DNA of 62,135 bases from an uncultured Planctomycetales bacterium (GTDB taxonomy: Bacteria; Omnitrophota; Gorgyraeia; Gygaellales; Profunditerraquicolaceae), in NCBI GenBank assembly GCA_964487475.1, contig CAZAPM010000005.1, positions 62,001 to 124,135 of the forward strand, in the 5' to 3' direction. Within the stretch, counting starts at the first letter, position 1, and each line of letters opens with the position of its first letter. The translations under genes and the position numbers were made by a program. The notes beneath the pieces were generated by a model. The model was given only the letters and a program-made list of their open reading frames with translations. It was not told where the DNA came from and did no database searches. This document shows, piece by piece, positions 10,348 to 55,800 of this stretch.

Positions 10348-10348
10348 T

Positions 10349-10374
10349 GTCCAATCTACATTTGTAAAGTCCAA
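10349..10374. repeat. Second GTCCAA(TCT) direct-repeat pair after a stop codon
   Basis: gtccaatctacatt at 10349 and gtccaa at 10369; compare gtccaatctgcatt at 7937. Confidence 0.6.
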
Positions 10375-10658
10375 ATTTAAGTGGGTATATCTGATTTAAG
10401 GGGAAAATTTTCTGAGCCAAGGCTGGGGTAAATAATTGATTTAGAAAGGCAATAATTCGGTAGGGCGGGATAACAATTTGACCCCTTGGTGATGATTAAA
10501 TGGAGTATATGGGCTATTTCTTTTCCGGTAAAAAGATTAATTCAAAATCTTCCTTTCAAACCATTTCCTTTGGGCCTGCTATTTTTCAGCTGGATCAAAA
10601 GCCTTTTTGTTGCAGCGGTTACATTAGAAACCGTTTTCAAAATGACAAAAATCATGTC

Positions 10659-10686
10659 TTGACACTATATTATAATATGTTATATT
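10659..10686 (+). promoter_or_regulatory. Sigma70 promoter for the giant gene
   Basis: TTGACA (10659-10664), 16-nt spacer, TGn-TATATT extended -10, directly before riboswitch 2. Confidence 0.65.
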
Positions 10687-10692
10687 ATTAAT

Positions 10693-10790
10693 GCAACGAA
10701 AGGGCAAACCTCAAGTGATTGAGGGGCGCAAAGCCACGGAACTTAGATCCAATAATCGTGATATTTTAAGTTGGCCGGGCTGCCGAATAC
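10693..10790 (+). ncRNA. Cyclic di-GMP-I (GEMM) riboswitch aptamer upstream of the giant gene
   Basis: GAAAGGGCAAACCTCAA-GTGA-TTGAGGGGCGCAAAGCCACGGAACTTA...TAAGTTGGCCGGGCTGCCGA has the GEMM-I consensus, a GNRA tetraloop and G20. Confidence 0.9.
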
Positions 10791-10818
10791 GAGTAGTATT
10801 TGACAACTCGGTTTTTTT
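10775..10818 (+). terminator. Riboswitch 2 expression platform: terminator overlapping the aptamer 3' end
   Basis: CCGGGCTGCCGAATAC-GAGTA-GTATTTGACAACTCGG followed by 7 T. Confidence 0.75.
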
Positions 10819-10874
10819 ATTGGAAGTTCTTAACGAGTTTAAGAAATTTTTAACAAATAGTTTCAAAACTCGAA

Positions 10875-34800: not shown

Positions 34801-37800
34801 GGAAGCCAGGAAGATGCATCAGCGTTTCGGCAGGGAAGCCAAGGTCTCCGTGGTCATCGGCGACGTACCGGATCATTTCGAAGCGGTGGCCCGTACTTCC
34901 GTGGATATGGTCGGCATCAACAGCTACCGCGGTGTGGGCGAGCTGGTCGCGGCCTGGCAGAGAGAATCCGCCAAGTCGGGAAAGACCATGCCCATGTACT
35001 TCGCGGAGCACGGCGCGCAGTCGACCACCGGCGAAGAGACCCAGCTTACCCGGGTACGCCGCGTGTATGAAGAGGCCCGTCAGCTGGGCATGTCCGCGCT
35101 GTTCATGAGCTTCGAGGATAACTCCCGCAAGGGCAATGACGACGGATGGGGCTGGTACGGCAAGAAGGTCTATGCCGCGATGCAGGAGCAGTGGAAGGGT
35201 ATCGCTCCCGCGCCCAAGTACGGCATCTCCGTGCCGGCAGGCCAGATCGCCGCCGCGTCCGATGCCGCGACCATCGCCCAGAGAGAAGCCAAGCTTTCCT
35301 ATATCGACCGTGAGCTCTCGAGAGCCACGCTGGCCCTGGAGAAAAAGCAGGCCCAGCTCGATGCGCGCAAGCAGGCATTGGCGCGTATGAACCAGGGTAT
35401 TGCCGCGGATTCCTTTGCCGGTATCTCCCTGGATGCCGCGCTCGTGACCGCGCTCGACCGTACCTATTTCGCCGGAGAGCATGAGGTCACCGGCCTTTTC
35501 GCCGCGTACCTGAAGGACGAGAGCCGCCGCCTGGAAGGCCTGCGCAACTATATGCAGGATATGGGCAATACCCGGGCCAAATCCGCGGCCGATATTACGG
35601 CTGCCTTCGCGGCGCTTCGTACCGACCTGATCAGCCAGGCGAAGCAGCTGCAGGATAAGGTCACCCTGGCGATGCAGAAGAAGGGCGCCGATAAGGAGGC
35701 CCTGGGCGTCATCGCCGCGTTCCTGGATAAGGACCTGCAGAGCCTGGAAGCCGCCACTGCCCCGAACGTGGCCGCGGTGGAAGCGTATACCAGAAATCAC
35801 ATGCTCAATCAGCAGGGCCAGATCTACCTCGACCTGACCTATTCCCAGGCTGCCTTCAGCGAGCTTTATTCGAATTTCATCAACCTGCGCAACACCTTCT
35901 TCGAGCTGGTCAAGGATACCAAGTCCAAGAACAAGAGCGAGCTGGCGGCGTTGTACATGGGCTTTGAGAAGGGCTTTGCCAACACCCTGGTCTCCTTCGG
36001 CAAGGTCAACGATATCAACTTCGGGGTGCAGATCGGCGGAGACCTGGCGCCTCTGACGGACGCCATCCAGATCATCTACGGGTTCGTGACCGAAGAGATG
36101 AGCATGACCAATATGGTGCTGGCTTCCCTGGCGCTCTATGACGACTTCACCACCCTCTGGCAGCTCCCGCAGGCCCGCCACCTGAAGGACGTGGGCGGCA
36201 TCATCATCCCGCTGCCCAAGGATGAGCAGCTGCGCCGCATCGGTATCACCCTCTTCGGCCACAACATCGGTGTCGGCGAGGGCGGGTTCATCGCCAAGGA
36301 TAAAGGCTCCTTCTTCGGTCTTAATGCCCTGATCGCCGAGCTGAAGCTGGGCAACAAGATGAAGGTGGGAGTCGATGTGTGGCTGGTCGAAGTGGAGGCA
36401 GGCGTCGATTTCGAGCACAGACTCAAGCATATCCTGCCCAACGTGATCCTGAACGCGTCCCTCTTCGGGGATAAGGTATACCTGCTCCAGACCAAATACG
36501 GCACCTATGCGTACTTCCCGACCATCGCTGCTAAGGACGGGGTCAACGCCTTTACCCAGAAGAGAGAATCCGATTTCTATGACATGAGGCTCTTCGGCGA
36601 ATGCCTCAACAGCTTCCTCGAGCATGCCTTCCAGGGCAAACTGCCGAAGGAGTACACCGCGGTGTACGTGCCTTCCCGCGTGCAGATGGAAGCGTACCGC
36701 CGCGCCGTGACCGGGGAAGAGCCGAACGCCAAGTACGACGGCAAGATCGAAGACCTGGATATGAAGATCGGCAAGATTGACCGCGAGCTTAAGAAGCTTG
36801 GCGAGAAGAAGTCTTCCGCCCGCGTGCAGAAGCAGGTCGCGCAGCTGCAGCAGGAGCGCCAGCCGCTGGATGCGCAGAGAGCGGAACTGCGCCGCCAGAA
36901 GCTCGCGGAGCAGAAGGGCGACTATTCTTACTGGATCAAGATGGATCTCAATACGCATCTGCAGACCATCTTCCGTTACAACCTGAAGAACGGGGCTTCC
37001 GAGGTCATCTCCCGGGTCAATATGTTCTACCGTGACGAGACCAAGGCCTCCAACGCGGTCAGGACCGCCAATAATTTCGAGACCGAGAAGTATCTGAAGG
37101 CGTTGAACCTCTGGCCCTGGAAGTCCGCCGCAGACGAGGAGGCCAATCCGGTCAAGTTGATGAAGGTGGCCAGCGTCAAGGATTTCGGCAAGATGGATGC
37201 CATCTTCCGCGGCGCGATCGAAGGGTTCGGCGCGCAGACGGATATCCTGGGCAACGCCGTGAAGGTGTCGGAGACCATGGAAGAGGTTCCGGCCATGTTC
37301 TATGGCATGGTGCCGCAGAGACAGAACAGCGCCTTTGTGTTCGACGCCCAGGGCAACCCCAAGATGACCATGGCGCCCATCAATCCGGACAGCGGCGCGG
37401 TGGGTACCTTCAGCCTTAAGATGCCTCTGATCCGTCAGTTCATGCAGGAGAACAAGACCGGTATCCAGCACGTCTCCTTCGCGAACACCGGCAAGGCGTT
37501 CATGAGACTGCAGCAGCCGGTCGCAGTGGAGAAGGCGAAGGCCGGGGAGAAGTATACCGCCGAATACGTAGTGACCGGGTTGAACGGCGAAGAGCGCAAG
37601 ATCAAGCTCGACCTTACCTTTGCCGAAGGCGAAATGATCACCTTTGACGCCGCGACCGCGCGCAACAGCGCGTTTGAGACCAAGGCGGGGGATAGGCCGT
37701 TCGCGTTCGTCCGCCAGATCACCGTGAACGTTCCGCAGGCCATTGCCTGGACCTTCCGTCAGGGCGAAGGCGCTAAGGCGGTCGATGCGGCCGAACTGGC

Positions 37801-40800
37801 CCGGATCAGCGCGGCTACGACCGTAGGCGACAGGGTCAGCGTCAATCTCGGTGACACGTATGAGACCGTGGTACTCGGGCCGAAGGTCAACAAGGTGTGG
37901 GATGCGGCGTATACCCGGACCGCCAAAGACGGCAAGGTGACCCCGGCGTTCCTGGAATATGCGAGCGGGGTCGAAGAGGTGGTGTCCAATCCCAATAATC
38001 TCAAGGAAGAGGATATCTTCGGCTATGTGGTCAAGGACGGCAAGCGTATCGCGGTCGCCGCTCCTCCGGTCGGCGGGATCATGGAAGGGGAGCAGGTCAT
38101 CGACCTGAGCAAGATCGTTCCCGCTCCGGCGCGCGCGGCAGCGGCTGCGGCGTCCCACGATGAGCTTAACGCAGGATTGCGCGAATATTTCCGCCAGATG
38201 AGCACGCTGGCCAACAAGGTCAAGGAACTGCGCGCGCTCAAGGCCAAGCTGGCAGACGGGTATTACCGCGATATCCCGACCGCGCAGGAAAAGGTCCGTA
38301 TCGACGCGCAGAACAAGATCGCGCTTGAGACCAACGCCGCCCAGCAGAAGCAGTGGAGCGAGGATAACAAGGCGAGCGTCGACCAGAACCTGGCGGCTGC
38401 CCAGCAGAACCTGACCCGCGCCGAAGGACGTATCGCGGAGGAGATCGCCAAGGAGAAGGAAGGCCTTACCTATAATAACGGGCTGCTGACCCAGGCGAAT
38501 GCCAAGGTCACCGACTTAAGCGCCAAGCTGGCCCAGGCCCGCCAGAGCAACAACGAGCTTCTGATCAAGTATTACTCCGAGCAGCTTTATGGCGTCAACG
38601 GCACCCCGGCGCACGTGACCGGCGGCGCGCTGCGCGACGTCTTCGATCTGCGTTATGAAGTCGGCAAGATCAATTACCGCATCACGCAGCTCGAAGCGGG
38701 CAACACCGCGGTGAGCCCCGACCTGAACCTCGACGTGACCGATGCGCGCAACGGGCTTAAGAACTGGCAGGATCGCCAGGCGGCGGTTTCCACCGTGGGT
38801 GATTGGCATAAAGATCCGTATGCGGCGAATGCGCAGTGGGGTAAAGCGCAGCTGCAGGCTGCCGGATGGCAGGTAACGGATGCCGCCAACGGCGTAACCT
38901 ATGCCCGCGCCAAGCTTTCTTCCGCGCAGCAGGGCGTTGCTTCCGCCCAGGCGAATGTCACCAGCGCGACCCGCGGCCTGAACAACCTTACCGGAGAGCG
39001 TGACACCCTGACCGCAGGCGCCTCCACCAAGTACAGCATCGAATGGAACCGCGCCCAGTCCGTGACCACCCGTAACGAGCTGACCAAGGTGACCACGGAT
39101 ACCGAGTGGGGTATCCCGGGCCTGCAGACGAGGCTCCAGAACGCCCAGAACGCCGGAGACGCCAATGGGGTCGCGTATTGGACGGGCAAGCTCAACGAAG
39201 CCTATGCCTACCGCGATCAGCTGCAGCAGGCAGTGCCTTACTGGGATGCCAGGATCACCGATTCCACCGCGCGCCTGACGCAGCTCAACGGCACCGGCAC
39301 CGATTCCATTTCCAACGCCCAGACGTATGTTGCCACGACCCAGTCCACCCTGACCACCGCGCAGGAGTATGAGGCGCTGCGCCAGAAGCTCCTGCAGGGC
39401 GGCGCAGTGGTCGACGGCAAGGAGATGATGGGAGCCATAGATTACTATAACAAGGTGGTGGCGGAGAACGGCGCGAACCTCGAGAAAGCCACCGAATATC
39501 TTAATAACCGCACCACGAGCATCAATGAGCAGATCGATAACCTTTACCGTTTCATGGATGCCCGCGATAACGCCTTTGATTCCACCAGCGCCGTGGCCGA
39601 CCGCTCCATGGACGCCCAGCGCATGAGAACGGCCCTCTACGAACAGGCGAAGATGATCCGCGAATCCGGCCAGGCGCTGCAGGCGCGTTATCCGCAGCTG
39701 CCGCTCTTCACCGAGAAGGAGTTCAAGGAGCTTATCGAATCCGAGAATCCGCAGGGATATCTCGGCAGCTACCTTAACGACAATTACCTCGGCAACAGCG
39801 CCAAGGCGACTTCCGTGTTCGAGGCGCTCGGCTCCAAGATCGACCTTTACAGCATCTCCCTGCAGTATACCGGCACCCCGGCGACCCATCAGCGCGGCGT
39901 GGGTATCCGCACTCCTCTGGGCGAGAATGCCATGAACGCCTTTGTGGTCGGGTACGCCGACCGCGTGCAGTACCGCGACAACGGGGACGGGACCACCACC
40001 AAGTGGAACGACCGCCGGTTCATCATCTTCGATAACGTGGCCTATGCCAAGGGCGACCTGTCCATGGGGTATGTCGGCTATATGGACGCCTCCGTTGACG
40101 GCAACGGCGTCATCCACATGCATGACCTGCACATCCGCGACGAACTGGCCAACAAGTTCTTCGTCCAGCTCTCCGGCGGCGCGCAGTTCACCAGCACCGA
40201 AGAGAACGTGAAGCTCGTCTCTTACAAGGACGGGCAGGAAGTGCTCCTGCCGAGGGATATCTTCGTCAAGGAACGCCTGATCTACACCAGCTTTGCCTTC
40301 GGCCGCGAGGATAAGGAAGCCGGATGGAAGTGGGATGTGTTCGTCCGGCCGGAATATGATACCTCGGTCTGGGCGCCGAAGGAGTTCTATCCTTACGTGG
40401 GAGCCGAAGGCCAGGTCAAGGTCGGGTTCCTCTCCGGCAGGGACGTGACCACCTCCGTGGGCGCCCGCGCCATGTACGCCGGGGATCAGTCCTTCAAGGG
40501 GTCCTCCTTCGTGAAGGTCGAGCTGCCCAGCGATATCTACGTGAAGGCGGAAGGCGCCAACAACCAGAAGTATGACCTCAGCTCCCTGATCTTCACTCTC
40601 GGGCTGCCCGTGCCGTGCGTGGACGATACCGGGGTCGAGGTGCATTACGGCATGAATTGGATCCGCACCGGCAAGATGTTCGACGGCTACGGTATGACCT
40701 TCGGCCCGGTGGCTTCCTTCGGCAAGTCCAAGCGTCCTGCCCTGCCGGGGATCGCCGATACGACCCTGCCGGCGATGTTCGATCAGCTGCGTCCGAAGAC

Positions 40801-43800
40801 CTCTCAGGGTCCTCCGGAAGTTACCGTTGACGGCACGCTTACCACGCATTCCACCCGCACGTTGACCGGCGACCGCTTCATCTGGGGCCCGGCCGCCGCC
40901 AAGCTCATCGAACTCTACGAGAAGCACGCCGGTGTCGCCATCTTCATCGATGCGAAGCTTCCCGCAGGGCTTACCTATAAAGAATTCACCGCCGCCCGCC
41001 AGCTGGATTCCATGACCCCCGCCGAATTGAAGGCGGAGGGGATCACCAAGACCAAGGACGGCTATTTCGTCTTCATCGCCGAGGCCAATAAGCAGATCAA
41101 GATCTCTGATGCCGACGGCCAGGCGCTGGTGCTGCCGCGCGCTGCCGCCCTGAAGAAGTTCGGCGCGCTCAAATACCCGGTGGTCGTCGAGCCGGGCATC
41201 GAGGCGTACAAGCAGACCATCGCCGGTTTGAAGGGCGCGGGCCTGGTGAACGGCCGTGCGATCTCCATGGACGAGCTCAATGCGTATGTGGAAGGCGCCA
41301 AGGGCCTGCGTATCCGGGGCGAGGCTATGGGCCAGAAGGACGAAGCCGGTAAGGACCTGCTGCGCATGGTGATCGTGGATCAGAACGGCAAGGTCAAGGG
41401 CAACCTTACCCTCGGCAAGAAGGGTATCGCCAGGATGGAAGAGATCCAGAAGGCGCGCTTTACGGTCGCCACTCCTGCGGGTAACCTGTTCCTCGATGAA
41501 GCCGGATTCGTGGATTTCATCGTCAGAAATCAGGGCAGGGTGCAGGCGAAGGCGGAAGGCACGCAGACGATCATCACCGTGGACGGTACTCCGGTGACCT
41601 TCCCGAAGGATTACGCCAGCCAGATGGCCGGCCTGGGCCGTATCAACGCCCTGGATGCCGCCCACAAGAAGCTGAGCATCACCCTGGCCGAGGATATCCT
41701 CAAGGCCCTGTATTCGAAGGAAGGCTGGGGCGCGGGCAAGCTGCATCTTTCCATCGAGAAGAACGCCGAAGGCAAGAACGTCTTCAAGGTCAAGGGCCTC
41801 AAGGACCTGACCGGCAATGACGCGGTGGTCGAATTCACCGATGCCGGCCGCGCGGCGCTGGCGGCCCTGCGGACCAACAACTACTTCGTGGTGGTGGCGG
41901 ACAAGGGATACGGGTATTACATGCCGCACAAGTCCATCGTGACCGACAGGGAGGCCCTGGTTAAGGAGGGCAACTCGATCGTGACCATCGATGAGAACGG
42001 CAATGAGATCGAGCGCGTGTACTTTGGCGATGTGGCGGCGGATGACCGGATCGAAGCGGTCCGCGGCACCGTGCCTGCCGGATTGACCGATATCCGCGCC
42101 GCCTACACCGGCAAGCCGTACTCTGAGGTCTTTGCCGTCAATCCCGCGACCGGCACCAAGGGCGCGCTTACCGGATGGGTGGTCAAGGCTTTTGACAAGC
42201 CGGTGGCGGATGCCGAAGGCCGCACGTATGACATCATGATCGAGCTGGATAAGGCTTCCAACTCCGTTACCCGCGCCTTCATGCTGATCATCGACAAGGA
42301 CGGCACCCAGACCACCTTTGATATCAAGACCGCGGATGCCAACGGCAAGAAGGTCTACGAGTTCGCCTGGTTCTCCGCCCCGGCCGCTCCCGGCGCGCCT
42401 GTCCAGGGCAAGATCTACCAGGCTGATTCCCTGGAAGCGATCACCAAGGCTGTGGCGGCCAAGAATTTCGCCGGATTGCGCGATACCGGCATGAGCATCA
42501 CGGTCGAAGATGCAGTGCAGGGCGCCGAGCGCAACAAGCTGGTGACCATCAGCAACGGCCAGGAGACCAATGTGCAGCTTATCGGCAAGAAGAGCAAGGT
42601 CCTGGCGAGCACCACGTTCGCGGCGAACGAGGCCCCGAGCTTCGAGAACAAGGACGGGTTCGTGGTACGCTTCAAGTCCCTGGAGGACCTGAAGCAGGCG
42701 CTGAAGACAGGAGACTTCTCCAAGGGCACCAACACCGGGATCAAGCTTTCGACCTTTGACGCGACTTTCGGCGGTGCGAAGGTCAAGGCAGTGGTAATGG
42801 AGCAGGGGGTCAACGCCAAGGTGGACCTGATCTCCACCAAGGCCGGGGAAAAGGAAGAGAATTCCGCGTTCAAGGGCAAGGTCGTCGCCTCCATCAGGGT
42901 CAACCCGGTCAAGGCCGTGCTGGATAGCGAGGTCAAGGATTATACCAAGGCCAGGATCAACGATATCCTCTCCCGCGGGTACTACGTGACCACGGTCAAG
43001 GCCGGCAAGGCAGTGCAGGCGACCAATCTCGCCGAGGTTGTGGAAGGATTGAGGAACGGCACCCTGGCCAGGGGAGACGAGGAGTCATTTGCGGTGTACC
43101 GCGGATTGCTTATCACTAAGGACGCTCCGGCGCGCAAGCTCCCCGTGCTCGCCATCTTCGGCGACAACAAGGGCAACCCGGCCAACGACGTGAACTACGT
43201 CAAGAAGTACGATGACGGCAAGATGACCACCTTCTCCCGCGCGGTCAAGCCGAGCGCACTGATCGTGGCGGATACCGGGCTGGCAGGCGAGTACGGCCAG
43301 ATCCACGGAAGCATCCTGATGGGTGTAGCCGCCTACGACATCGGCGCCCAGGCAGGTATCCCGGCCGACAGACAGCTGCGCGGCAGCCGTTCCTACAAGC
43401 TTTACACCGAATTTGATCCCGCGACCGGCGCGCATAATTACTACATGGACGGTACGCAGGGCTTCTCCCTGAACGGGCGCGATGCGTATCGCACCAATGT
43501 GAACGGCTCCGTGGACGCGATGGAAGTGTACACGGTCTATCCGGCTGAATACGAGCGCGACCCGGCGTTCTTCACCAACCGTCATGATCCGAAGTACTCC
43601 GCGCGGTCCATCTTCATCAACAAGAAGACCGGTCAGCGCGAGTTCGCCACCCCCGAATACGGATACCTGGAGCATCATCCGGCGGCAAAGAGCGAGGTTC
43701 CGGAGCCGAAGGGGACCAAGGCGGCGGTGATGAAGGCGGTGCTAAGAAGCGCGTTTGCGTTAACCATGTTGATCCCGTTCGCATTATTGGTCTTGAGCTT

Positions 43801-46800
43801 CTTCAACCGTAATAAAAAGGGCAGAGATGTGACGGAAGTTACCAGCGATCCTGATTGGGCCCTTGAACCGGAGCATGCTGAGATCAAAAGCCTCTTCAGC
43901 GATATAAGCGCCGAGTTGAATTCCGGCCGCGGGAAAGAGTTCTTTAACTATGTGCGGGGAGAAAAGATAGGGACTGTTGATGAGTGGTTGAAGGATAGGA
44001 AGGCATCTTCCCGTCTCTTGAGTGTGGTCCCGTTCAATATATTCTTCGCTGATATTGCGGCGATAATGAATAAGATCCAGGTTTTCTTGTATGCGCATCC
44101 GATCATTGCGTGCTTGCTGCTTATTCCGTGGGCGGTGCTTTGTCTCTCGCTTAAGGCGATCAACGATACCAGCCTGGCGGAATTCAGGAAGGAGCTCGGA
44201 AGATTCGGGGTCAAGGGGTTGATGTGGTTCTCAATCGGGACCATATTCGCCTATATGCCTTTTGGCACGTTACGGGCGTGGGGATACAGGATATTTGCAT
44301 CGCTTAATACGACCCTTGCCGTTCCTGATCTGATGAGAAAATACTGGAAAGAGTCGGATGACAGGATTAGAGATGATATCTTGGACGCATTATGGATGAT
44401 CAAGCGCGGATCGGTAAGCGCATTTCTCGTATCGGCTGCTTTGCAATCCGGGGATATCTTCAATCGTTGGAAGGCGCTACTCATTCTCGAGATGCAGACG
44501 GAGAAGTCTTGGCTGGTCTCCATATTCAATGCGGTCATCGCTGATCCCGACCATGGCGAATTGATCCGCCAGCGCGCAAAGGATGCGTTAGCTTTCTTGG
44601 AGAGCCCGAAAAATCGCCCGTCGATTGAGCGCGGCAAAAAGAATGCTGGAGCGATTGTTGTGACGGCAGCTGGGGCAGAGGGGGAGCTTTTGTCGGTGGA
44701 GATATGCGGAGATTGGAAAGAGGCGATTTCCAATTCAGCTTTGACTGACGCCGAAAAGGACATCTTAAAGAGTGAGATCGAAAGAGTGCTGGGTGCTCTC
44801 GCGAAACGTTATTCGGCAACACCGTTTAGATTTGCCCTGCGGATCGTAGAGAATGCCTTGAGGCTGGCGGAAGTCAGGGAAGCGGCGGCTAAGGGTGATG
44901 CCATGGCAGAGATTACGCTCGACAGGAGGCTGCTCGCGTGCGTGCCGTTGCTTGGCCTTGAGTTGACCCACGAAATTAATCACATCGTATTGGGGCAGAG
45001 AGAGTCAAGGGCTGTATCGGCAATTGAGGAGGTTGCGATCATCCTGGCTGAGGTGAGGAGCTTCTTGAATCTTGGTGATGCTTCCCGTGCGGAGGTTATG
45101 GCTTTTCTTTCGAGCAGTGCCTCATCGATGGACACCGCACACTTCAAAGATATCCTCGTGAAAGCCGAGAGAAAAGAATCTGTTCTTGAGGAAGTCATAA
45201 ATTATGTAAAAACCGCGTATGGGGCAGAAGCTTCTTCGGCCTTGGGCGGTCTTTCGATTGTCGAGATTGAGGCCCAAGTCCTTCAGGTTATTGCACCGTA
45301 CGTTCCCCGCTCGGAAAAAGATCGCATAGATCTTATTAAGGAAGCGAACGATCCTTACAAGACTTTGGAGGTCCTGAGAAGAACGGCGCAGACTATTCTC
45401 GGCAAGAGCTGGAGGATCGAGGACCTTAGCATCGTGACCGACGCACAGGTCGAGCTTTTTGCCGCTGCGGATATGATCGATCCGAAGGTGGTCGAGGAAT
45501 TCAAGAAGGCACGCCAGGAGCTGCGCGATAACTTCAGCAATTCCGAGGAGATCCTCAAGAAATTTAGCCTGGGTACCTTCGGCCCGTTGAAGTGGAAGTG
45601 GTTACGCAACGCCGCCCGCCGCTGGTCTCTGGTGCGCCGCGTGCTTTCCCTGACCAAGATCCTGGAGTTCATGGTCAAGGTTAATGTGGCGGAAGTCAAG
45701 GGCGAGTATTATAAGGAATGTAATAATGACCGCCGTGATCCTTCTCCCAAGGATTTCGTGGAGAATTACTTCGTGAAGTTCGTCGATGCCAAGTATACCT
45801 CTCCGATGGTGGTAGCGCCCATCCTGCTGGTGATCCTGGTGGTGCTGGGCGTGCTTAACGCCGTGGTGCTTATCTCCAGCGCGTACTTCGGAGCGCTGAC
45901 CACCTCTGCCTGGATGACCTTCTGGATCCCGGCGGCCCTCAACAATATCGCGGCCATCACCTATAATAACCTTAACCTGCCGTTTGCGCTTTACCAGTCG
46001 GTAGGCCTCTGGACCGGCGGATTGCTCCTTTCCGCGACCGTGATCGGCCTGATCTATATCTTCAAGGGCGAAAAGGCCGTGGCGAAAGCCGCGCATGACC
46101 CGGCGATCTATCACGCGGCGATGCAGGTCAAGCGCGAGCGTGCGTTCATGAACAAGGTGGTGTGGACGGCTGCGGGTATCGGCGCGGCGCTGCTCTTCGT
46201 TCCCGGCTTCTCCCATATCGGGTCCGCGCTTATCCTGGCTTCTTCCCACTTGTGGATGTTCAATTTCATCAAGGCGCCCGGCTTCAAGACCTACTTCCGC
46301 CAGTTCTGGTCATGGGGTAATGACAATCCGCAGCAGTATTTCAGCAATATCTTCCACATCGCGCTGCTCTCCTTGTTCATCATGTACTCCTTCATCGCCT
46401 ATGCGCACGTGGTGCCGTGGGCCGCTTCCTTGTTCGGAGCGGAAGGGGTGGTTGCTCCTCTGACCGGTATCTACGGTATCATGCGCGCCGGTCTGTACAT
46501 CTCTATCTCGTACATGGTCGTCTGGTACGGCGGCCTGACCGCCCTCTGGTATGGCCTGCGCAACTACGTGTCCGGTGTCTTCTATGCGGAGAGCAAGCAT
46601 AAGGATGCGAATGGAAATTATTTCACCGATGAGCGTACCTATTCCCGCGCCAAAGTGGCCGGATTCTTCTATGGTTCGGTGCGTTTTATTGCCGCAGGTG
46701 TCATTGCCTACTTTGCGTATATCTTCCTGCAGCCTGTCATGGCGGCGGGTGCAGCCTGGGTGATCAACACGGTCTTCGTCAACGGCGTGCATCCTTTCTT

Positions 46801-49800
46801 TGCCTATACCTTCGGCCTGGTGGCGAACCTGATGACGTTCATGGTGGCCATGGATGCGGCGGATAAGTCGTTGCATTTGGTAGCCAAGGCGACCGGATTG
46901 AAGTTCCTGATGGTGGGTGATGAGTATGCCCTGTTGGATGTGGATCCGGTGACCGGCCTGCCGAGAGACCTGCCGTATAACCCGTATGACCTGGCTCCTT
47001 ATTTCGACCGCGCCTTTAGCGCAAGCGAACGGGGAGAATACGGCTGGAATGATTTCGTCATCCCTGCCCAGGGCGCTACCGAAGGCCTGACCACTGCCGC
47101 CAAGCTGCGCCTGGATTTCGCGCCGGAGTATAAGTACCTGCGCGAGTTCATCGAGCATGTGAACAACGGGGATTTCGTCTGGATGCGGACGCATGCTCCG
47201 GCGACCTCCAAGCTCATGGACGTGATCTTCATGTTCGTGGAGTATTCGGAGGAGAATCAGCGCTTCGGGCCGGACGGCCTGCGCAAGCCGTACGCCAAGA
47301 TCGTCGGCGGCCAGGTCACCTACCGCGATTATTACACCTGGGAGCAGTTTGTAGAGGACCTGCACGATTCCCGCTCCCCGGCGTACCGCGTGTTCCGTAA
47401 CCCGGCCAAGCCTTTCGATGAGCAGGCGCTGGAGACCTTCTGGATGAACCATCGCTGCCAGACGGTATATAAGACCATCCGCGAAGGCCTGCTCAACCGT
47501 AAGATCCGCAAGTGGTATTTCATCAGCCAGCTGCTCAAGATGTTCAAGGCTGACGGTGTCCCCGGGATGGATATCCGTATCCTTCCCGCGAGGACGCAGC
47601 AGGCTATCGCGCAGGAGGGCCTGGTGCTTAAGGCCAAGGGTAAGACCTTTGACGAGCTCGATTACGATACCAAGCTGGCGATCGACCGCATCGCAGAAGA
47701 GTATTATGTGAAGTATTTCTACCGTTTCATCTGGATGAGCAATTTCGGCCAGCTGGCCGATCTGGTGGGGCTGCTGCCGGCTGCGTACCGCGCCGGATTG
47801 GATTCTCCCAGGAAGCTGGCGATGTTCCTCGAGACCCATCCGCACCTGAACGATTACATGGTCGGCAGGCTCAACACCATGACCGGCATCCAGGTCGAGA
47901 ACGGACGCCTGGCCTTGAACCATGACATCGTGATGTCCCGTCTGCACAATGATATCTCCAAGGGCAAGGCGCCTCGCGCAGTGTGCGCCAGCGCCCTGGT
48001 CTTCGACCTCATGAACCAGATGAACGTGTACCGCCGTGAGTTCGGATTGCGTGAGCTGAACCTGAAAGAATTCGTCATGGGCTCCTATGACGCGGACACG
48101 GAAGTGGAGAGCGTGGAGGCCAAGCGCCTGCTTTACGCCGCCTATATGTTCCAGAAGTACCCGAGACTGGGCATGCTCTTCATCTATACCTATGTATTCA
48201 TGAAGGATTATACCCTGGGTACCAAGCTCTTCAGCATCGGCGAGGATGTGTTTTGGACCAAGGTGGAGTGGCTCTTAGGGTTCCTGGGCAAGTCTGTCGG
48301 CGCCGGACACAACTACCTGTGCCGTCCGTACCTGATCGCCCAGACCGACACCTTCGATACTTCCGAAGACGAAGTGCAGGCTTCCTCCGTCACCGAGCTC
48401 GGGTTCCACGTCATGAACTTCTCCGGAGCCAAGCTTGGGCACGGCGCAGAGCATACTTTGGAAACCGCCTATAATCCGCTGCCGAAGTGGGCAGCCGGTT
48501 TCATGGATATGATGCGTTTCAAGTGGCGCAATATCTTCTCCAGCCCGAATGTCGGCTTCGGCGTGAAGCTGAACATGTTCCTCTTAGGGTTCTTCTACAT
48601 CGGCCTGGCGATCGGCGCGATCTCCCTGATCGAGAACGCGTTTGCCATGGTTGCCAACATCAGCTCCTTCGAAGGCCTTGCCGGGTTGCTGCCGTGGATG
48701 ATCTTTGTGCCGGTGCTCTACTATGCCGTGTGCGCCCCGCTCTTTGCCAAGCGCGTGGATGAAGTAGGCTGGGTCAGGACCACCCTGGAGATGCCGGTGA
48801 TCATCGTTTCCGCTGCCCGCTGGTTCGCGATCACCATGTTCCTGCAGGGTATCTCGGGTGTTGTGTTCGTAGGCTTGAGGTTAGGGTCCGTGTTCAACCT
48901 TTCTTCCAAGATGAACAAGCTGGTGACCATCCCCGCGATCACCAACCTTACCGGTGTGGATGCCAAGCAGTTCTTCGGCAAGATGGGAGAGTTCCGCCGG
49001 GGTAAGTTTGACGGAGACGGCAAGGTGTTCGATGACGGCAAGTACGGCGAGGCGCTGCTGCCCTTCCAGACCCGCTTGCTCGTGCTGCTTGCAGGTAGCA
49101 CCGGATTGCTGATCACCGGTTTCGTTATGTTCATGCATTCCATCGACCTGATCGGTATGGCGGTCGCGCTCGGCGCGCAGACCCTGACCAACTTCGCGAT
49201 CTGGTTCGGCATCATCCAGCTTAACGTGCTTCCGGGTGAGCCTAAGTCAGAGAGAAGCCTGTTTGCGGTCGCTACCGCCGCATTCTTCTCCAGCGTTGCG
49301 CTGGTGCTGGGTGTGATGGCGTTCTTCGGATGGATCCCGAATATCGTGGTGCTGCTGCCGTTCCTGGCGACCTATGGCTTAGCGCTGGCCATCGCCGTAT
49401 TCGTAGCCGGCGCGCTCATAGCCTTTTCGGCGGTGGTCAAGCCCAACGCGTATGCGTCTCATTATACGAGACTCTTCTGGCTCTTCATCCTGCCGATGGC
49501 AATGACGATGTACCTTTTAAGCCGCACGCTCTTCTGGTTCATGCACACCGGCTTGAACGTCCATATGGCGGGCGCGGCAGCTGCCAAGGCTACCGTTGCA
49601 ACCAAAGCTTCGGTGGGCCTGGTCGGCTTTATTTCCGGCAACCTCGCATTGGCGCTGGGTATCGCGGCGGTGGTGATCGTGCTGGCGGTGGCGGCGAAGT
49701 ATGCGTTCGCTTCCAAGGCGAATGCGGTGAATATGGGTCAGGTGAAGGTGTCCGGCAGCCGCGAGCCTCCTACTGATAACGCCGAGCCTAAGTTTAAGAT

Positions 49801-52800
49801 CACTCCCGCCAAGACTTATGTGACTGTGGACGATGTTGCGCTTGATCAGGAAAAACAGGAGTCCGTAGTTGTGGTACTCGCGACCGAAGACGGAGACGGC
49901 AATTACGTAAAACCGAGCAAGGAACAGGCTGAAGCGTTTAAGGATGCGCATGAAGTAGTCGTGATATTGAAAGACGGCACTGAGAAGACCGTTGCTCCTT
50001 CTTCGGTCAACCCAGGAAGCTTCAGGGTTACGGTCGAACTTTCCGGATCTGACCGTAAGAACATTAAACAGGTGCGCATCGTCAGGAAAGCGACCGCTGA
50101 TTCGGCTGCTTCCGATGTGGCTTCGGTTGCGGTTTCTGCCGTCGAACCCCGCCTGCGCGCGGTCCGCGACCTGGCGCATACCCCTGTTGCAGGGCGCGCG
50201 AACATCTTAGAGAAGGTCATGGAGCTGATGAAAGGGGAGAATGATCCGGAAGTGTTCGAAGCGCTCGTGACCGTGTTCGATAAGTTTGGGGTTCCTTCCG
50301 TGGTGATGTTTCAGCCTCTTTGCAATATCATCAACCGTGCTAAAGGCAATAAGAAGATCTATGAGCGTGCGTATGAGCTGCTGGGTAAGATCAAGGAAGC
50401 GTTCACGGATGATATCGTTAAGTTGGAGCATGCGCTGGTGACCAATGTTGATCCGGTGATCCGTGCCAAGGCGGCCGAGCTGTTGGGCGTGGCAGGCGAA
50501 GGCAAAAAGCGCCATGTGACCGACGTGCTCAAGGCCCATCTGCAGACCGAGACCAATATCCGCGTGGCCGATCAGATCACCCTGGCTCTGCAGAAGCTTA
50601 CCTATAAGAATGCGGATGAGACGAAGAAGGTACTGGCTGAAGCAGAAACTCTGAAGAAGACTTCGGTTTCGGCCGCCATGCAGGAGAAGATCGCAGCCTT
50701 CAAGGCGGTGATGGCCGCCGAGTATCACAACCTCGGCGTTACCGGTAATGACGAGTTACTGCCTTTCGGCGGCACCTTGCGTGACTGGGTGTTGACCGGA
50801 GCGCTGAACGAGCATGGCGATATCGACGTGTTGGTCAAGGTGTACCAGTCGGATATTGTCAGAACCGACACGAAAGTGGATTTCCTCGCCTCCATTGATA
50901 AGGCTGTTGATTCCGTGGCAGGAGCACTCGCGCCGAAGCTTGGGCAGGATAAGGAAACGGTCAAGGCCAAGCTTCTGGCGAGCGTGCTTTATATCAACGG
51001 CAAGCGCATCAATATCATCGGTATGATCGAAAAGACCGGAATGAAGGAGAAATCCGGCAAGCTGTATCCTCACCCCGATTACGCCAACTTCTTCAAGAAC
51101 AGCCAGCTTTATCCCAGTATAAGCCGGATGGGCGTGTCGCTGGTCAAGGACCAGGTGTATTGTGCCGAAGGCACGAAAGAGGACCTGGAAAACAAGGTGC
51201 TGGCGGTAAGGAATCCGCTGCACGGGCCGTGGAGCGAGATCACGATGGAGCAGATGTCCCTGCTCTTGAGGATGAAGTTCGAGCATCCCTTCCTGACGGT
51301 CGATCCGGTGGCTGCGGAGGCTATGGACCTCTTCTTTAAGGATCCGGCGTATTTCAAGGCAGGCATCAAGACCTTGACGGGTGGGGCGGCAGCAGGTCCG
51401 GCAGCCGCTCCTCAGGCCGCAGGTACGGGTGCTGCCAAGCAGGCTGCTCCCGCTGGTACGGGCGCGGCTGCGCAGGGCCCGGCCAAAGCCGGTACGGGTG
51501 CCGCTCCGCAGGCGGCGAAAGCCGGCACTGGCGCTGCTCCTCAGGCAGCCAAGGCAGGTACGGGTGCCGCTCCGCAGGCGGCGAAAGCCGGCACCGGTGC
51601 CGCTCCTGCTCCGGCAGCAGCAGCTGCTCCTGCCGCAGGCAAGGGTAAGGGTAAGGATCGCCTGGAGAAGCTTCTGGAGATCCTCTTCCGCTATGCCGCA
51701 GACGTCAATGAAGTGAAGGCGTTCTTTACCGATGCCGATCGTCAGTCCCTGGTGGAAGCGCTGGGTATCGATCTGGATGCGGTGGCTGAGCGCGCCCTGG
51801 CTATGGATGATGAGGAACAGATCAATTTCGAGCGCAAGGCGCTCGATCTCGAGACTCTCATGTATTTCGTGCATGCGGCGGGTATCGATATCAAGGGCAA
51901 GACCCGCGGGGCACAGAAGGAAGCGCTGCTGGAGTTCCTTATCGGAAGCAAGGCGCATGAAGCTGCGGCGACCGTAATGCATAAGGGCGAGCGTGCGATC
52001 GACGATGCGGCGATCATGCAGGCGGTTGCCCTGGCGCTGCAGGCAGTTCCTGCGGAGATGATCGCTGATGCGCAGGTCCGCGGCAGGGCGGAAGGGTTGG
52101 CGATCGAAAAACTGCAGAAGGCGGCTAAGCTCTTCGGCTGGAATACTTCCAATAACAGATTGACCTTCGAAGGCCTGAAGCTGGCGGCCCTTAACGTGCT
52201 GAATGCGGTGCTGGCGTTCGAGTTCAATGCCTACGCCGGAACGGATAAGAAGGCAGAGGAATTGAAGGAGAAGCTTGAGGAGCAGGCGTGCGTTACCTGC
52301 GCCCCGGTCGGCAATGCGGCAAACGTCAATCTCGTGGGACGCAATCCCCGCCAGGTGCCGACTGCCAAGGGCAAAGAGATCATCGGCGGGCTTCTGGCCG
52401 AGGGCAAGCCTTTCTACCTGGCCTTCGCCGATATCGATGATATGACCCTTTACCACGAAGCGTTCGGCAAGCACCTGAAGCTCGCGGGTAAGGTGAGGCT
52501 GGTGATCGAAGAGGTGATCGAGGATATCAATGCCCGCGAAGCCGGCAACGGTATCGTGATCAGCCAGGTGAAGTGGATGGAAGACGAGTCCTTCATCCTG
52601 ATCGAGGGGGTAACGCATGAGGCAGCCGCGCAGGAATTGATGATCGAGATCCGCGAGCGCGTGGCGATCCAGAGCGCGGTGCGCCTGGGTGTGGCAGTCC
52701 TCGAGGGGGTGCAGGAATCCCACAGCAATTATTTCAACGCGATCCAGCACGTGACCGGGTACGAATTGATCAGGACCGCAGACGCGTACACCGTTCTCTT

Positions 52801-55800
52801 CGATATTCTGCCGGGCAAGACCGCGGCTGAATCCCTGGAGATCGCGGTCCGCGCATGGAACAGCCGGCTGCTTAAGACCAGCGGTATCGTCGTGCATGCC
52901 AGGCTGTTGGCGCCGGTGCCGGCGTTCAGCATCAGCGTTGCCGGCGTACTGGTCCAGGAGAAGGTCGAATTCCCGGCCGTAGCTGCCGAGCGTAGTGCCA
53001 AGATCGATGTTAAGGTCGAAGAGATCATGACCAAGATCGACCCGGCGTTGGCTGAGGCGAAGAAGCAGGGCGCCCAGAAGGTAGCCAATGCCGACAGGGA
53101 TTTTGAGATCATCGTGGCTGAGAAAGAAGCGGCTTCCCCGGCTCCCGCGCTGCCTGCGGTGTGCGCAGATTTCAATACCGGCGCGTTCACCAACGATACT
53201 GCCGTGGTCGTGCTCAAGAACGGCGAGTTCGGCGGGTTGGATTTCAATGTGCGCACCATGGTGCTGGATCAGCTGGCGCTGGATTATAAGATCGCGATCG
53301 GTTCCAGAAGGGCTTTAACCCCCGCGGAAGTGCTGCGCATCTGGGGACATACCGGTATCAGGATGAGGCTGGTCAGGCTTCTGGCGGAGATCGAGCAGAA
53401 CGCCGAGCTTAAGGCGGAAGTTGAGAAGGCTCTGGCGCTGGCGGCGGATGAGAAGGGCGTTGAATTCGGCCAGTGGATCGATGCGCAGGCGAAGATCACC
53501 AAGGATAAGGCGCATCCTTTTGTCTTGAGCGAGAGCAGCCATTTCAGGGCCCTGGTCTTCCTGTGGGATCTGAGCTCCAAAGAGGTTCAGGTCGTGCTGT
53601 TGCAGAGGGTAAGCAGCAGGCAGCAGGTGGCGGCCCGTTACGGCCTGCCGGCGGCTGCGGTTGCGGGGTCCGAGCAGAACCTGGTGGACCTGATCGTGGG
53701 CGAAGCGGATAATCCGGCGGCCGGAACCCTGCGCGCCATGGTCAAAGAGGAGCTCGCTGCCGGATCCCTGCAGTACGTGATGAAGGTGGCGGATAACCAG
53801 GGCGTGCCGCAGAGAGCTGCCTATGCCGCGGCTAACGCCATCCACTCGCCTACGTTTGAAGAGCTTGCTTCCCGCGAATGGGATATCTGGAAGGCGGAGA
53901 TTTCCGTGCTGCTGGGCCAGTTTACCCGGCCGTATACGCCTCTGGCGCCTCCGGCAAGAACTGTCGAGACCCGTTCCCTCAATGATGCCTACCGTATGTT
54001 CGTTCCCGTGACCTACAGAACGCCTCAGCAGATCGCCGATGAATTGACCCAGGCTGCGGGTACCATGTCCGCAAACGCTTCTCTCCAGGAAAGATTCGCG
54101 CTTGAAAGAAGGTTAGCCTGTTTCGTCGCTTCCATGAATGAGGCGTATGCCGCCACCGGCGCCTATACCTATTATCATGCGCTGGTTGCGATCAGTCACT
54201 ATCAGGCAGTGGTCTCCCAGTGGATCCCGCAGGATGGGGTCAACCTTTACATCGCCCGTGACGCTGCCAACTTCTGGATGGCCGGCCAGATGATGGCGCA
54301 GGATAAGGCGGCGTTCGAAGCTAATAATGTGGTGTTCCATCTCTCCCGCGAGCGCATGGGCAATGCGCACAAAGCCATGGAGATCATCCTGGATACGGTC
54401 AGGGCGGAATCGGTGTCTACTCCTGTCGAGTTCTGGACCGCGCTGCTGAAGCATTTCACCGCCAGGATGAATGAGGATGCGGAGTTTGCGGCGAAGGTTG
54501 CCGAGACGTATGCCAGGGTCAAGCCGTATCTGACAGGCGGAAAGCTGCGTATCGTGGAGAGCATGGCGGAAGGTATGATCACTACTTTCATCAAGGCGGC
54601 TGTGCTGGTCAATGAGCCTGCTGCGGCGGTTGAAGAGTGTATTGCCGCTCCTAAGTCGGTTCGCGAGTCGAAGCTGCGCGGTGCAAGGATCTTCGATTGG
54701 CTCGGAGCGACCAGGGAAGAGATCGCGAGGTTCCTCGAAGATGCCTTCCAGAAGAATGGTTTGAAGGCGCCGGCGAAGATCGATACCACTCCGGCGGAAG
54801 AGGCGGAGGAGAGAGAGGTAAAGCAAGCTTTCGATCGTAACCAGCTTAAGGTATGGGCACTTGAAGCGCAGGCGTATGAACTCCAGTATCCTTTCTCTGA
54901 AGTCAACCTTGGTCATCCGGTGGAGTTCTCGGAGGGCAAGGTGTTGGTATCTTCTCCTGCCAAGCAGCTTGGTTTTGCGCTGCGCCAGATGCTGTTAGCG
55001 AATGCAATCGCGGATAGGGCTGGAGAAATTGGCGCTGTGGCGCTGGCAGCGGCTGTTCCTGTGGTGACTGTGGATGAGTATTTCGCGGGAACCAATATCC
55101 ATATGACTGATGCGCAGAAGGCCGCATTCGAGGATCTCCTGGCACGTCATAACGAAGTTTTGATGACGATCGGCGATGCCAAGCATGCCGAGGCATTTGC
55201 CAGGATCTTGGAGTGGATGCAAATGATGGGCGATGCAGCAATGGCACAGGTGTTAGCGGTAGATAAGGCCGAGCCGCGTTTCGCTTTTTACCTGGAAAGA
55301 ATGTTTTTTGTTCTTCGTGATATGTCTTCCCATGATGATTTCATACGCAGGATTACTTGGTTGATGAATAGAGAAGGGGCGTTGTCGGCTGAATTCGCGA
55401 AGCTTAATAAGGGTAAGTTTGGGATTGAGGACCCCGTTCAGATATTACATCTGCTTGGGACAAAGATTGCAGTTGAAAAGCGAAAGCTTGCCCAAGAACG
55501 TCGAGGCATGGGATACGTTCGCAGTTCCTCAAAATCATATGGCGCCGACCTCCTGGGTGCGACTGCTCCGGGCGCGAAGAAAGAGCTGTTGGATTCGAGA
55601 GATTTCCTGAGCCTGATCCTGAAGGAAGCAGGGAAGCTTAATGGCAAATGTTTCTCCTTTGTGCCGATGTTCGGATTGGTTAAGCTTCATCCTTTGGTTG
55701 CGCTGATCGCCCTGCTTGTGGTTATCGCTGGGGTGGGGTATTACATTTGGAAAAAGACGAGCAATTTGAGAAAAACCTCAACGAAAAAAGTTCCGGTTGT

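Follow-up and report, generated by a model that had tools for sequence, protein, structure and literature searches.

A putative, highly divergent GT48-like synthase module within a giant membrane protein from uncultured Omnitrophota

Positions 45790-49715 of the window (the whole 62,135-nucleotide stretch of DNA analysed here) probably encode, as judged from sequence, an inverting glycosyltransferase that is processive, lies embedded in the membrane, has the cellulose-synthase/Fks1 fold and is a highly divergent bacterial GT48-like member. The GT48-like identity proposed in the initial annotation held in part: homology of the module to the GT48 lineage is very likely and is supported by bacterial profiles, but Pfam PF02364 does not match, residues invariant in GT48 are replaced, and the core lies nearer to the GT2 profile than to the eukaryotic GT48 profile.

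Architecture of the giant protein and its putative synthase module

The host is an uncultured Omnitrophota bacterium, and the synthase sits within a giant membrane protein. The host genome is 94.6% complete with 0.39% contamination, the contig measures 124 kb, and the window stretch is covered by contigs from independent runs, with 0-3 differences among the long pieces listed. No RNA holder was listed, which carries no information on expression. The frame carrying the module and its surroundings comprise the following features.

10875..33745, plus strand: upstream giant ORF with peptidase C39, LysM, YkuD and peptidase M23 domains and two internal N gaps
33746..33845: scaffold gap of 100 N separating the two giant ORFs
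33872..62134, plus strand: giant ORF carrying the synthase module, >9,421 aa, running off the contig end, with no N inside
34322..35221, plus strand: clan GH-A TIM-barrel hydrolase (NE acid/base at 34724-34729, nucleophile E at 35006)
50315..50590, plus strand: HEAT repeats directly after the synthase module (PF13646, E 9.3e-7)

The upstream giant ORF is probably the 5' portion of the gene at 33872..62134. A possible second GT2-type domain at approximately 60600-61400, proposed from its motifs, was unsupported in Pfam, NCBIfam and PDB. The synthase module itself is laid out as follows.

45809..46852, plus strand: N-terminal TM bundle, 6 segments by hydropathy
47129..47490, plus strand: GT48-type N-terminal lobe of the cytosolic domain, with WEQFV and WxNxRxQTxxxT (Fks1 ~830-975); VEYSE starts at 47237, VTYRDYY at 47315, WEQFVED at 47339 and WMNHRCQ at 47441
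47957..47974, plus strand: GK motif (SKGKAP from 47957), with K4699 equivalent to Fks1 K1082 (donor binding)
48086..48097, plus strand: DxD motif (YDAD from 48086), with D4740 equivalent to Fks1 D1102 and a GT2-type D replacing GT48 N1104
48191..48316, plus strand: YVF strand, GE and GH (YVFMKD from 48191, GEDVF from 48239, GH at 48302-48316), with E1155 replaced by T, E1173 kept, K1172 lost and H1195 kept
48362..48370, plus strand: SED motif, with D4833 as putative catalytic base (Fks1 D1222, BcsA D343)
48434..48499, plus strand: GHGAE and KW (LGHGAE from 48434, KWAAG from 48485), with K1246 and R1248 lost, an acidic residue retained, and a GT2-type acceptor-stacking Trp lacking the Q of QxxRW
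48893..48910, plus strand: FNLSSK, aligned with GT48 YxxTGRG and resembling the GT2 gating-loop FxVTxK
48575..49684, plus strand: C-terminal TM bundle, 7 segments by hydropathy, a predicted translocation channel

The Fks1-like motifs of the initial annotation were each found once and in the order given, in the plus-strand frame at 33872..62134, which exceeds 9,400 aa and has no gaps; this bears out both their collinearity and the embedding of the module in a giant protein. The TM bundles claimed on both sides were likewise recovered by Kyte-Doolittle hydropathy (window 19, threshold at least 1.6), with 6 candidate segments at 45809-46852, the last of which, from the alignment, probably correspond to Fks1 TM5-6, and 7 at 48575-49684. 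VEYSE is present, but the match of its second E to Fks1 E851 is doubtful because this residue is not conserved in P0164, a relative that is 60% identical.

Residue conservation, predicted activity and product

Comparison with Fks1/Fks2 (GT48, PF02364; PDB 7XE4, 9WZS) and the plant and algal callose synthases showed a shared collinear arrangement of TM segments, cytosolic GT-A domain and TM segments, a shared GT48-specific N-lobe, and retention of the equivalents of Fks1 K1082, D1102, E1173, H1195 and the ED pair (E1221-D1222), all of which except E1173 are also common to GT2. K1082 has a donor-binding role in Fks1 (PMC10499315). The module differs from these enzymes in its missing PF02364 match, in lacking NQD and RxTG, in KW for KI/KL/KV, and in being part of a bacterial giant. 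Five further Fks1 residues are replaced (N1104 by D, E1155 by T, K1172 by G, K1246 by H and R1248 by A), and D1080 and E851 are not conserved; Fks1 mutants at these seven positions lose function, and E1155, K1172, K1246 and R1248 are proposed to bind acceptor or product (PMC10499315). N1104, E1155, K1246 and R1248 are invariant in 33/33 eukaryotic-clade and 23/23 canonical bacterial rows. The DxN/NQD position of strict GT48 reads DAD in the module, and FNLSSK stands at the site of the RxTG(R) loop; since DxD, KW and FxxSxK of GT2 type thus occur instead of NQD, KGR and RxTG, the module is not a strict GT48. The ED motif highlighted in the initial annotation is present (SED) but is not diagnostic for GT48, because it is common to 15/15 GT2 controls.

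With BcsA (PDB 4P00) and the curdlan synthase CrdS, the module shares the GT-A core, K, DxD, ED, the acceptor or signature Trp and an FxVTxK-like loop. It differs from them in lacking the glutamine of QxxRW (PLPKW is found there) and any GT2 Pfam match, in its extra GT48-type N-lobe of ~120 aa, and in that profiles of its family favour Fks1.

The module is quite likely a catalytically active synthase, as far as its residues allow this to be judged. If the module works like Fks1 and BcsA, its cytosolic GT-A domain would bind a UDP-sugar, most likely UDP-glucose, via K4699 and D4740/D4742, D4833 would act as general base, and W4873 would stack the acceptor sugar; a Mg2+ dependence like that of BcsA is suggested by the restored DxD. 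The growing chain would be pushed via the TM channel to the outer face of the inner membrane. It might then be trimmed or remodelled, if it is a beta-1,3-glucan, by the GH158-like domain that shares its polypeptide with the synthase, and the outcome could be a surface or periplasmic glucan.

A beta-1,3-glucan product is a serious candidate, if a slightly doubtful one, and is hinted at by this GH158-like domain in the same frame. A family profile of the hydrolase domain gave GH158 as the best PDB match (E 1e-21), with GH2 beta-glucuronidases nearly equal (9e-19), and the window hydrolase sequence alone reached E 0.07 to 6PAL. Pfam matches among the family members were to GH2_C (12/25) and GH72 (7/25), the window domain itself having none. 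It shares with GH158 endo-beta-1,3-glucanases (PDB 9ORO, 6PAL) the clan GH-A barrel and the NE and E catalytic residues, but differs in being fused into a giant and in scoring almost equally with GH2. A synthase-profile match was found in 10 of the 22 long ORFs with this hydrolase domain, nine of them with clear GT48-like scores, counts that carry no null. GH16 was not found in the 94.6% complete host genome.

It is possible, though unlikely, that the module is GT48-derived and makes a different polymer, with another linkage or sugar, since residues lining the Fks1 acceptor/product site are changed: the four proposed acceptor or product binders are all replaced, and the module sits on a very long stem of 2.7 changes per site. 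The GH158-like domain, which elsewhere is also often in the same ORF, argues against this, as does CrdS, a GT2 enzyme described in a passage of PMC6821405 as producing beta-1,3-glucan without those GT48 residues. A dead or decaying module, retained as a membrane scaffold or pore within the giant protein, is improbable; seven Fks1-essential positions are altered and the branch is long, but the module has every residue of the universal GT-A set (K, D, H, ED, W), and a relative differing at 40% of positions has the identical set. The replacement residues correspond to active GT2 states and recur in other divergent family members. P0164 retains the core motifs, among them K, D, H and ED, and the core motifs persist in the frameshifted relative L050 as well.

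Profile and sequence searches

Direct searches returned little. The PF02364 test proposed in the initial annotation was negative, with no match above the cut-off for the window domain and protein or for P0164, and PF02364 had no match in the host genome. The single protein gave no Pfam match to the module, only designed-repeat noise in PDB and nothing in NCBIfam; a single-sequence search for homologs among longer proteins found none, and the window with P0164 was equally blank for PF02364, NCBIfam and PDB, the last searched with a two-sequence profile. The GT2 models PF13632, PF13641 and PF00535 likewise had no match in the module.

The link between the window and Fks1 is a transitive one, traced by sequence comparison via bacterial intermediates. 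A profile of 30 bacterial loci, selected by PF02364 and with the window sequence excluded, picked the window frame as the sole significant match among 7,871 host ORFs (E 1.2e-6; next ORF 0.33; best reversed ORF 0.65), and a further window-free bacterial GT48 profile also had the window as its sole significant match in the host genome (E 5e-19). On the bacterial GT48 profile A1, ordinary GT2s score 62-69 bits and the window 63.7, so that the core score on A1 alone is non-discriminating; it was complemented by reciprocal, N-lobe and tree tests. In hhalign, the window with P0164 aligned to A1 with a probability of 99.0 (E 5e-18), to the GT2 profile with 58.9 (E 9e-5) and to eukaryotic GT48 with 28. 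The window core alone scored 6 bits on the eukaryotic GT48 profile vs 25.5 bits on the GT2 profile. On four bacterial sub-profiles, for which selection bias applies, the window scored 75, 64, 49 and 28 bits (GT2, 25.5) and P0164 80, 59, 51 and 37 bits (GT2, 7); many divergent rows were selected for likeness to the window. In the pairwise ranking for the window, the best GT2 comes 16th. Profile A4, made of the window and five divergent relatives, matched Fks1 in PDB with E 5.6e-12 over two stretches, including Fks1 872-994, and BcsA with 3e-5.

An unusual GT2 processive synthase (BcsA/CrdS/NdvB-like), its likeness to GT48 due to the shared GT-A fold and chance motifs, is quite improbable. Such a reading would accommodate the GT2-type DxD, KW and FxxSxK, an AU test that does not reject a tree with the window and GT2 sharing a side (p 0.42), and an ESM Atlas feature search that returned GT2 clusters (0.93-0.94) with just 150-169 of 256 features shared. 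Against it stand the missing GT2 Pfam match, the GT2 profile scores (12.8 for the window and -0.9 for P0164, vs 244 for an independent GT2), the missing Q of QxxRW, and an acidic residue where 15/15 GT2 controls carry P. A further point against it is the N-lobe, missing from the GT2 controls, which gave a weak signal among 1,185 search windows (window E 0.005, P0164 0.001, next unrelated 2.2, GT2 controls at least 3.4) and was not significant with a canonical-only profile. A best profile match to ordinary GT2 with no GT48-specific similarity, the outcome that the initial annotation had set against its own reading, did not arise with profiles.

Distribution and evolutionary origin of the family

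The GT48-like family is borne by Omnitrophota as a module of giant proteins. PF02364 is above cut-off in 37 of 401 Omnitrophota genomes, always in long ORFs, and 8 of the 13 other genomes matched by the single window protein also pass PF02364 at the same place; one match of that search, L010, proved to be an ordinary GT2 without family match and was dropped. Relatives were found across Omnitrophota and in Elusimicrobiota. 'Planctomycetales' labels were rejected as an additional phylum, 6/11 loci being identical to loci of Omnitrophota genomes. No paper was found that describes this bacterial family or names a bacterial GT48 branch. The Omnitrophota 'Archaeovorins', as presented in passages of West-Roberts et al. 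(bioRxiv 10.1101/2023.11.21.568195), are likewise multi-domain membrane giants with HEAT, glycosyltransferase, glycoside hydrolase and peptidase domains, but the glycosyltransferases named there are GT5 and GT1, and none of the terms GT48, callose and cellulose synthase turned up when the main text was searched.

A careful tree was built from 64 of 109 rows, omitting L112 and L141 (the two longest end branches) and near-duplicates; neither the alignments nor the trees include L048, whose frame spans 158 aa, or L050, which is frameshifted. All 8 GT2 rows fall together on one side (100/100), the window not among them, and the best tree puts the window inside the family (90/90), with AU values of p 0.42 for its placement outside all GT48-like rows and p 0.089 for its joining the canonical and eukaryote group. 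Eukaryotic GT48s nest among the bacterial ones, and bacterial monophyly is rejected (p 2e-5). The module may, as the initial annotation proposed, bear on the origin of the family; the AU tests are compatible with more than one placement of the window itself. Contamination with eukaryotic DNA, chimerism or recent acquisition of the gene from a eukaryote, which might be suspected of a family usually described from eukaryotes (in passages of PMC10499315 and PMC6821405), is largely refuted and exceedingly improbable given an intron-free frame of 9,421 aa, the 124-kb contig and 0.39% contamination, coverage by independent runs, relatives across the phylum and in Elusimicrobiota, and the position of the window as the least eukaryote-like family member.

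GT48 is described in a passage of PMC6821405 as convergent to GT2 glucan synthases. A tentative scenario, somewhat unlikely as a whole, is that eukaryotic GT48s (Fks1, callose synthases and algal storage-glucan synthases) came from a GT2-derived bacterial radiation in Omnitrophota/Elusimicrobiota giants, the window module being an early type with GT2 motifs on a GT48 scaffold and forming, with the GH158-like glucanase, a one-polypeptide beta-1,3-glucan assembly line, the bacterium being ultra-small and either predatory or dependent on a host.

Both the echinocandin antifungal target and the callose synthases of plants belong to GT48. The bacterial copies grade from near-Fks1 forms to forms with GT2 motifs such as the present module; this series makes the GT2-to-GT48 transition testable and offers compact bacterial enzymes for probing which residues determine the beta-1,3 linkage and the dependence on metal. 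The module would also give a concrete biosynthetic role to Omnitrophota giants, so far read mainly as adhesion or wall-degrading devices, and, as a very distant Fks1/callose relative with cellulose-synthase-type motifs, it may help to show the origin of a supposedly eukaryotic family.

Giant frames and the synthase module

The source genome is 1.87 Mb in size and 94.6% complete, with a contamination of 0.39%, and the window covers the 3' half of its contig C5. The following features frame the synthase module:

10875-33977, + strand, first giant frame (ORF call)
15710-15809 and 31373-31472, further N gaps inside the first giant ORF
33746-33845, 100-N gap between both giant frames
33872->62134, + strand, second giant frame (ORF call), carrying the synthase module
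34322-35221, + strand, clan GH-A barrel with both catalytic glutamates, in the same gap-free frame as the synthase
45790-49715, + strand, synthase module

The two further N gaps make 7,700 aa a nominal length for the first ORF. An M23 peptidase closes the first frame at the gap between the frames and the second opens in an Ala/Pro linker, so both are probably one gene of >17,000 aa, split by the N gap; the domains of this presumed joint gene are C39, LysM, YkuD, M23, GH-A, GT48-like and HEAT. The giant frame also contains a tandem Ala/Gly/Pro-rich peptide repeat (51380-51650, ~5 copies of an 11-residue unit). At ~60600-61400, YTDAD, ETQCG and FSFDTE resemble motifs of a dolichol-phosphate-type GT2 interrupted by an insertion; Pfam, NCBIfam and PDB give no support for a GT2-type domain there. 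Upstream of the giants lies a Tad/Flp pilus-assembly TadE/G-like gene (1293-2978; PF13400, E 5e-5), and contigs C1, C2, C15, C16, C22 and C23 of the same genome carry six further open frames of 2,694-16,838 aa, several of which are cut short by the end of a contig.

The feature is real. Two runs of a study distinct from the possible source supply contigs that cover 30 of 30 bins across 33850-50500, with no single piece spanning all, and the core motifs are kept both in P0164, a relative with 60% identity over 557 aa, and in L050, a frameshifted metagenome relative. The motifs named in the initial annotation each occur once and in the claimed order in the window frame, flanked by TM bundles, as described, with six hydrophobic segments on one side and seven on the other. 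VEYSE is likewise in place, but its equivalence to PHYxE is doubtful because P0164 does not keep the second E.

Relationship of the module to GT48 and GT2

Taken singly, the window protein gave no match in Pfam, PDB or NCBIfam, nor among longer homologs; the suggested check with PF02364 (Pfam Glucan_synthase) was blank, its own genome having been searched, and an Atlas feature search with the domain returned GT2 clusters at 0.93-0.94, with few features shared. Among 401 genomes, the single protein matched 13 besides its own (E from 1e-9 to 7e-4), eight of which pass PF02364 at the same place, and its tie to GT48 runs via a bacterial family. With a profile of 30 PF02364-selected loci, the window frame was the sole significant match in 7,871 own ORFs (E 1.2e-6), and hhalign against A1, the bacterial GT48-like family profile, gave a probability of 97 across core and TMs. 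Since ordinary GT2s reach 62-69 bits on A1, where the window domain scores 63.7, this score is insufficient, and reciprocal, N-lobe and group tests were therefore used.

A 15-sequence GT2 profile scored the window at 12.8, P0164 at -0.9 and an independent GT2 at 244, and hhalign scores for the window with P0164 were 146 for A1, 88 for the canonical set, 45 for GT2 and 40 for eukaryotic GT48. A 64-row profile of the GT48-specific N-lobe, built without window sequences, ranked the correct site first, at E 0.005 (P0164, E 0.001), in a comparison of 1,185 sliding windows, the next unrelated window being at 2.2 and GT2 controls at 3.4 or more; a 39-row profile gave E 0.04 and 0.007 for the window and P0164, respectively, and 0 of 200 shuffles reached the N-lobe hhalign score. 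The window domain was not significant with a canonical-only N-lobe profile. A4, a profile of the window domain and five divergent relatives (all below the PF02364 cut-off), ranked Fks1 top (5.6e-12, including Fks1 872-994) and BcsA at 3e-5, with signal mostly from the relatives, and the window core scored 75, 64, 49 and 28 on bacterial sub-group profiles, 25.5 on GT2 and 6 on eukaryotic GT48; this ranking and these core scores are biased in that many of the divergent rows, and the GT2 rows as well, were chosen for window likeness.

Among the Fks1 residues listed in PMC10499315, the window domain retains K1082, D1102, E1173, H1195, E1221 and D1222 and is altered at D1080, N1104 (to D), E1155, K1172, K1246 and R1248. 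All 33 eukaryotic-clade rows and all 23 canonical bacterial rows have N1104, E1155, K1246 and R1248; 16 intermediate rows keep them almost without exception, and 11 of these rows gained the GT2 Trp; 20 divergent rows have lost them, with DxD and Trp each found in 11; the altered-residue states form a gradient from canonical through intermediate to divergent rows. In the alignment, FNLSSK of the window domain falls at the position of the GT48 RxTG loop and of FxVTxK in GT2. On these residue states the module probably works in the manner of a processive GT-A synthase; it is part of the GT48 lineage in a wide sense and falls outside GT48 taken strictly. The proposal of a GT48-like glucan synthase was right as to lineage and too strong as to strict family and product.

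The bacterial GT48-like family and the eukaryotic enzymes

PF02364 matches 39 of 401 Omnitrophota genomes (37 above cut-off, in frames of 1,542-74,522 aa) and none of 14 control genomes. One positive locus matches Fks1/Fks2 at E 2e-55, and A1 matches Fks1 at 2e-104 as against 6e-9 for BcsA. A pattern scan in which a single genome stood for each species, and which reaches close family members only, yielded 44 loci, titled as Omnitrophota or Omnitrophota species (28), Elusimicrobiota (3), Planctomycetales/Planctomycetia (11, six of them identical to loci of the window's phylum) or unclassified (2). A4 matches 98 of 401 genomes, some of these matches being ordinary GT2; given the many Pfam-invisible modules that it finds, PF02364 understates the size of the family. 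Such GT48-like modules in giants include loci L099, L108, L112, L113, L117, L119, L121, L122, L139-L142, L169, L170 and L172, and synthase-profile matches also lie in frames of 74,522, 82,151 and 68,606 aa (genome contigs G357:C1, G242:C1 and G222:C1).

No description of a bacterial GT48 branch was found in a search of openly accessible papers, including PMC10499315, PMC7965971, PMC3797821, PMC7157763, PMC6299283, PMC6821405 and a 2026 callose synthase preprint; four metagenome papers mention GT48. In the main texts of West-Roberts 2023, the 2026 Omnitrophota genome preprint and Seymour 2023, GT48 and callose occur 0 times, and searches for an Omnitrophota giant with glucan synthase, or for Elusimicrobiota with glucan synthase, returned no papers. 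Domain tables in the supplements of two Omnitrophota preprints may list PF02364.

FastTree was run on the core of 109 rows, and a careful tree (LG+C20+F+G4) on 64 of them over 320 columns. In the latter, eight GT2 rows form one side (100/100), and an 18-row clade (100/99) containing every eukaryote-named row (nine named or MMETSP eukaryotes, one "glucan synthase" only and eight placed by motif and position) is nested among bacterial rows, the unnamed P0064, P0073, P0079 and P0110 being taken as bacterial; monophyly of all bacterial GT48-like rows was rejected (p-AU 2e-5). Glaucophyte (Cyanophora) and Apiculatamorpha GT48s (P0074, P0084, P0087, P0123) are the deepest eukaryotic-clade branches in this tree. 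The window and P0164, whose shared stem measures 2.7 changes per site, fall outside the intermediate, canonical and eukaryote group in the best tree (99/94); AU tests rejected neither a place of the pair beyond all GT48-like rows (p 0.42) nor its union with canonical rows and eukaryotes (p 0.089). The outgroup was narrow (GT2s from the window's phylum, without BcsA, CrdS and CesA), and the basal order could be a product of long-branch attraction. Given this loose placement, the outgroup and the possible attraction, a window module standing between GT2 and GT48 is a reading that the tree allows.

The GH158-like domain and a proposed mechanism

Pfam misses the hydrolase domain at 34322-35221. 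A profile with 24 homologs found GH158 best (9ORO, 1e-21; 6PAL, 7e-16) and GH2 a close second (9e-19); BuGH158 is a strict endo-beta-1,3-glucanase according to PMC7157763. Homologs occur in 50 of the phylum's 401 genomes, often in giants, and 10 of 22 other frames of at least 5,000 aa with the hydrolase domain have a synthase-profile match (three above the PF02364 cut-off, six with GT48-like profile scores and one weak), a count made without a null. Apart from ancestry, the GH158-like context is the only pointer to a beta-1,3 product. Elsewhere in the genome, locus L174 (its positions 8320-17987; contig C16) holds two more GH158-like genes, which adjoin the binding protein and pair of permeases of an apparent sugar ABC transporter as well as apparent regulators of the ROK and LacI types, the transporter and regulators being assigned from N-terminal sequences; this region is possibly a beta-glucan uptake locus.

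From the motifs and homology, which are observed, we infer the donor, linkage, topology and biological role of the module. UDP-glucose would most likely be bound by the cytosolic GT-A domain via K4699 and D4740-x-D4742, probably with Mg2+; the acceptor would be stacked on W4873 and deprotonated by D4833, the chain would exit via the TM channel, and the GH158-like domain may trim it.
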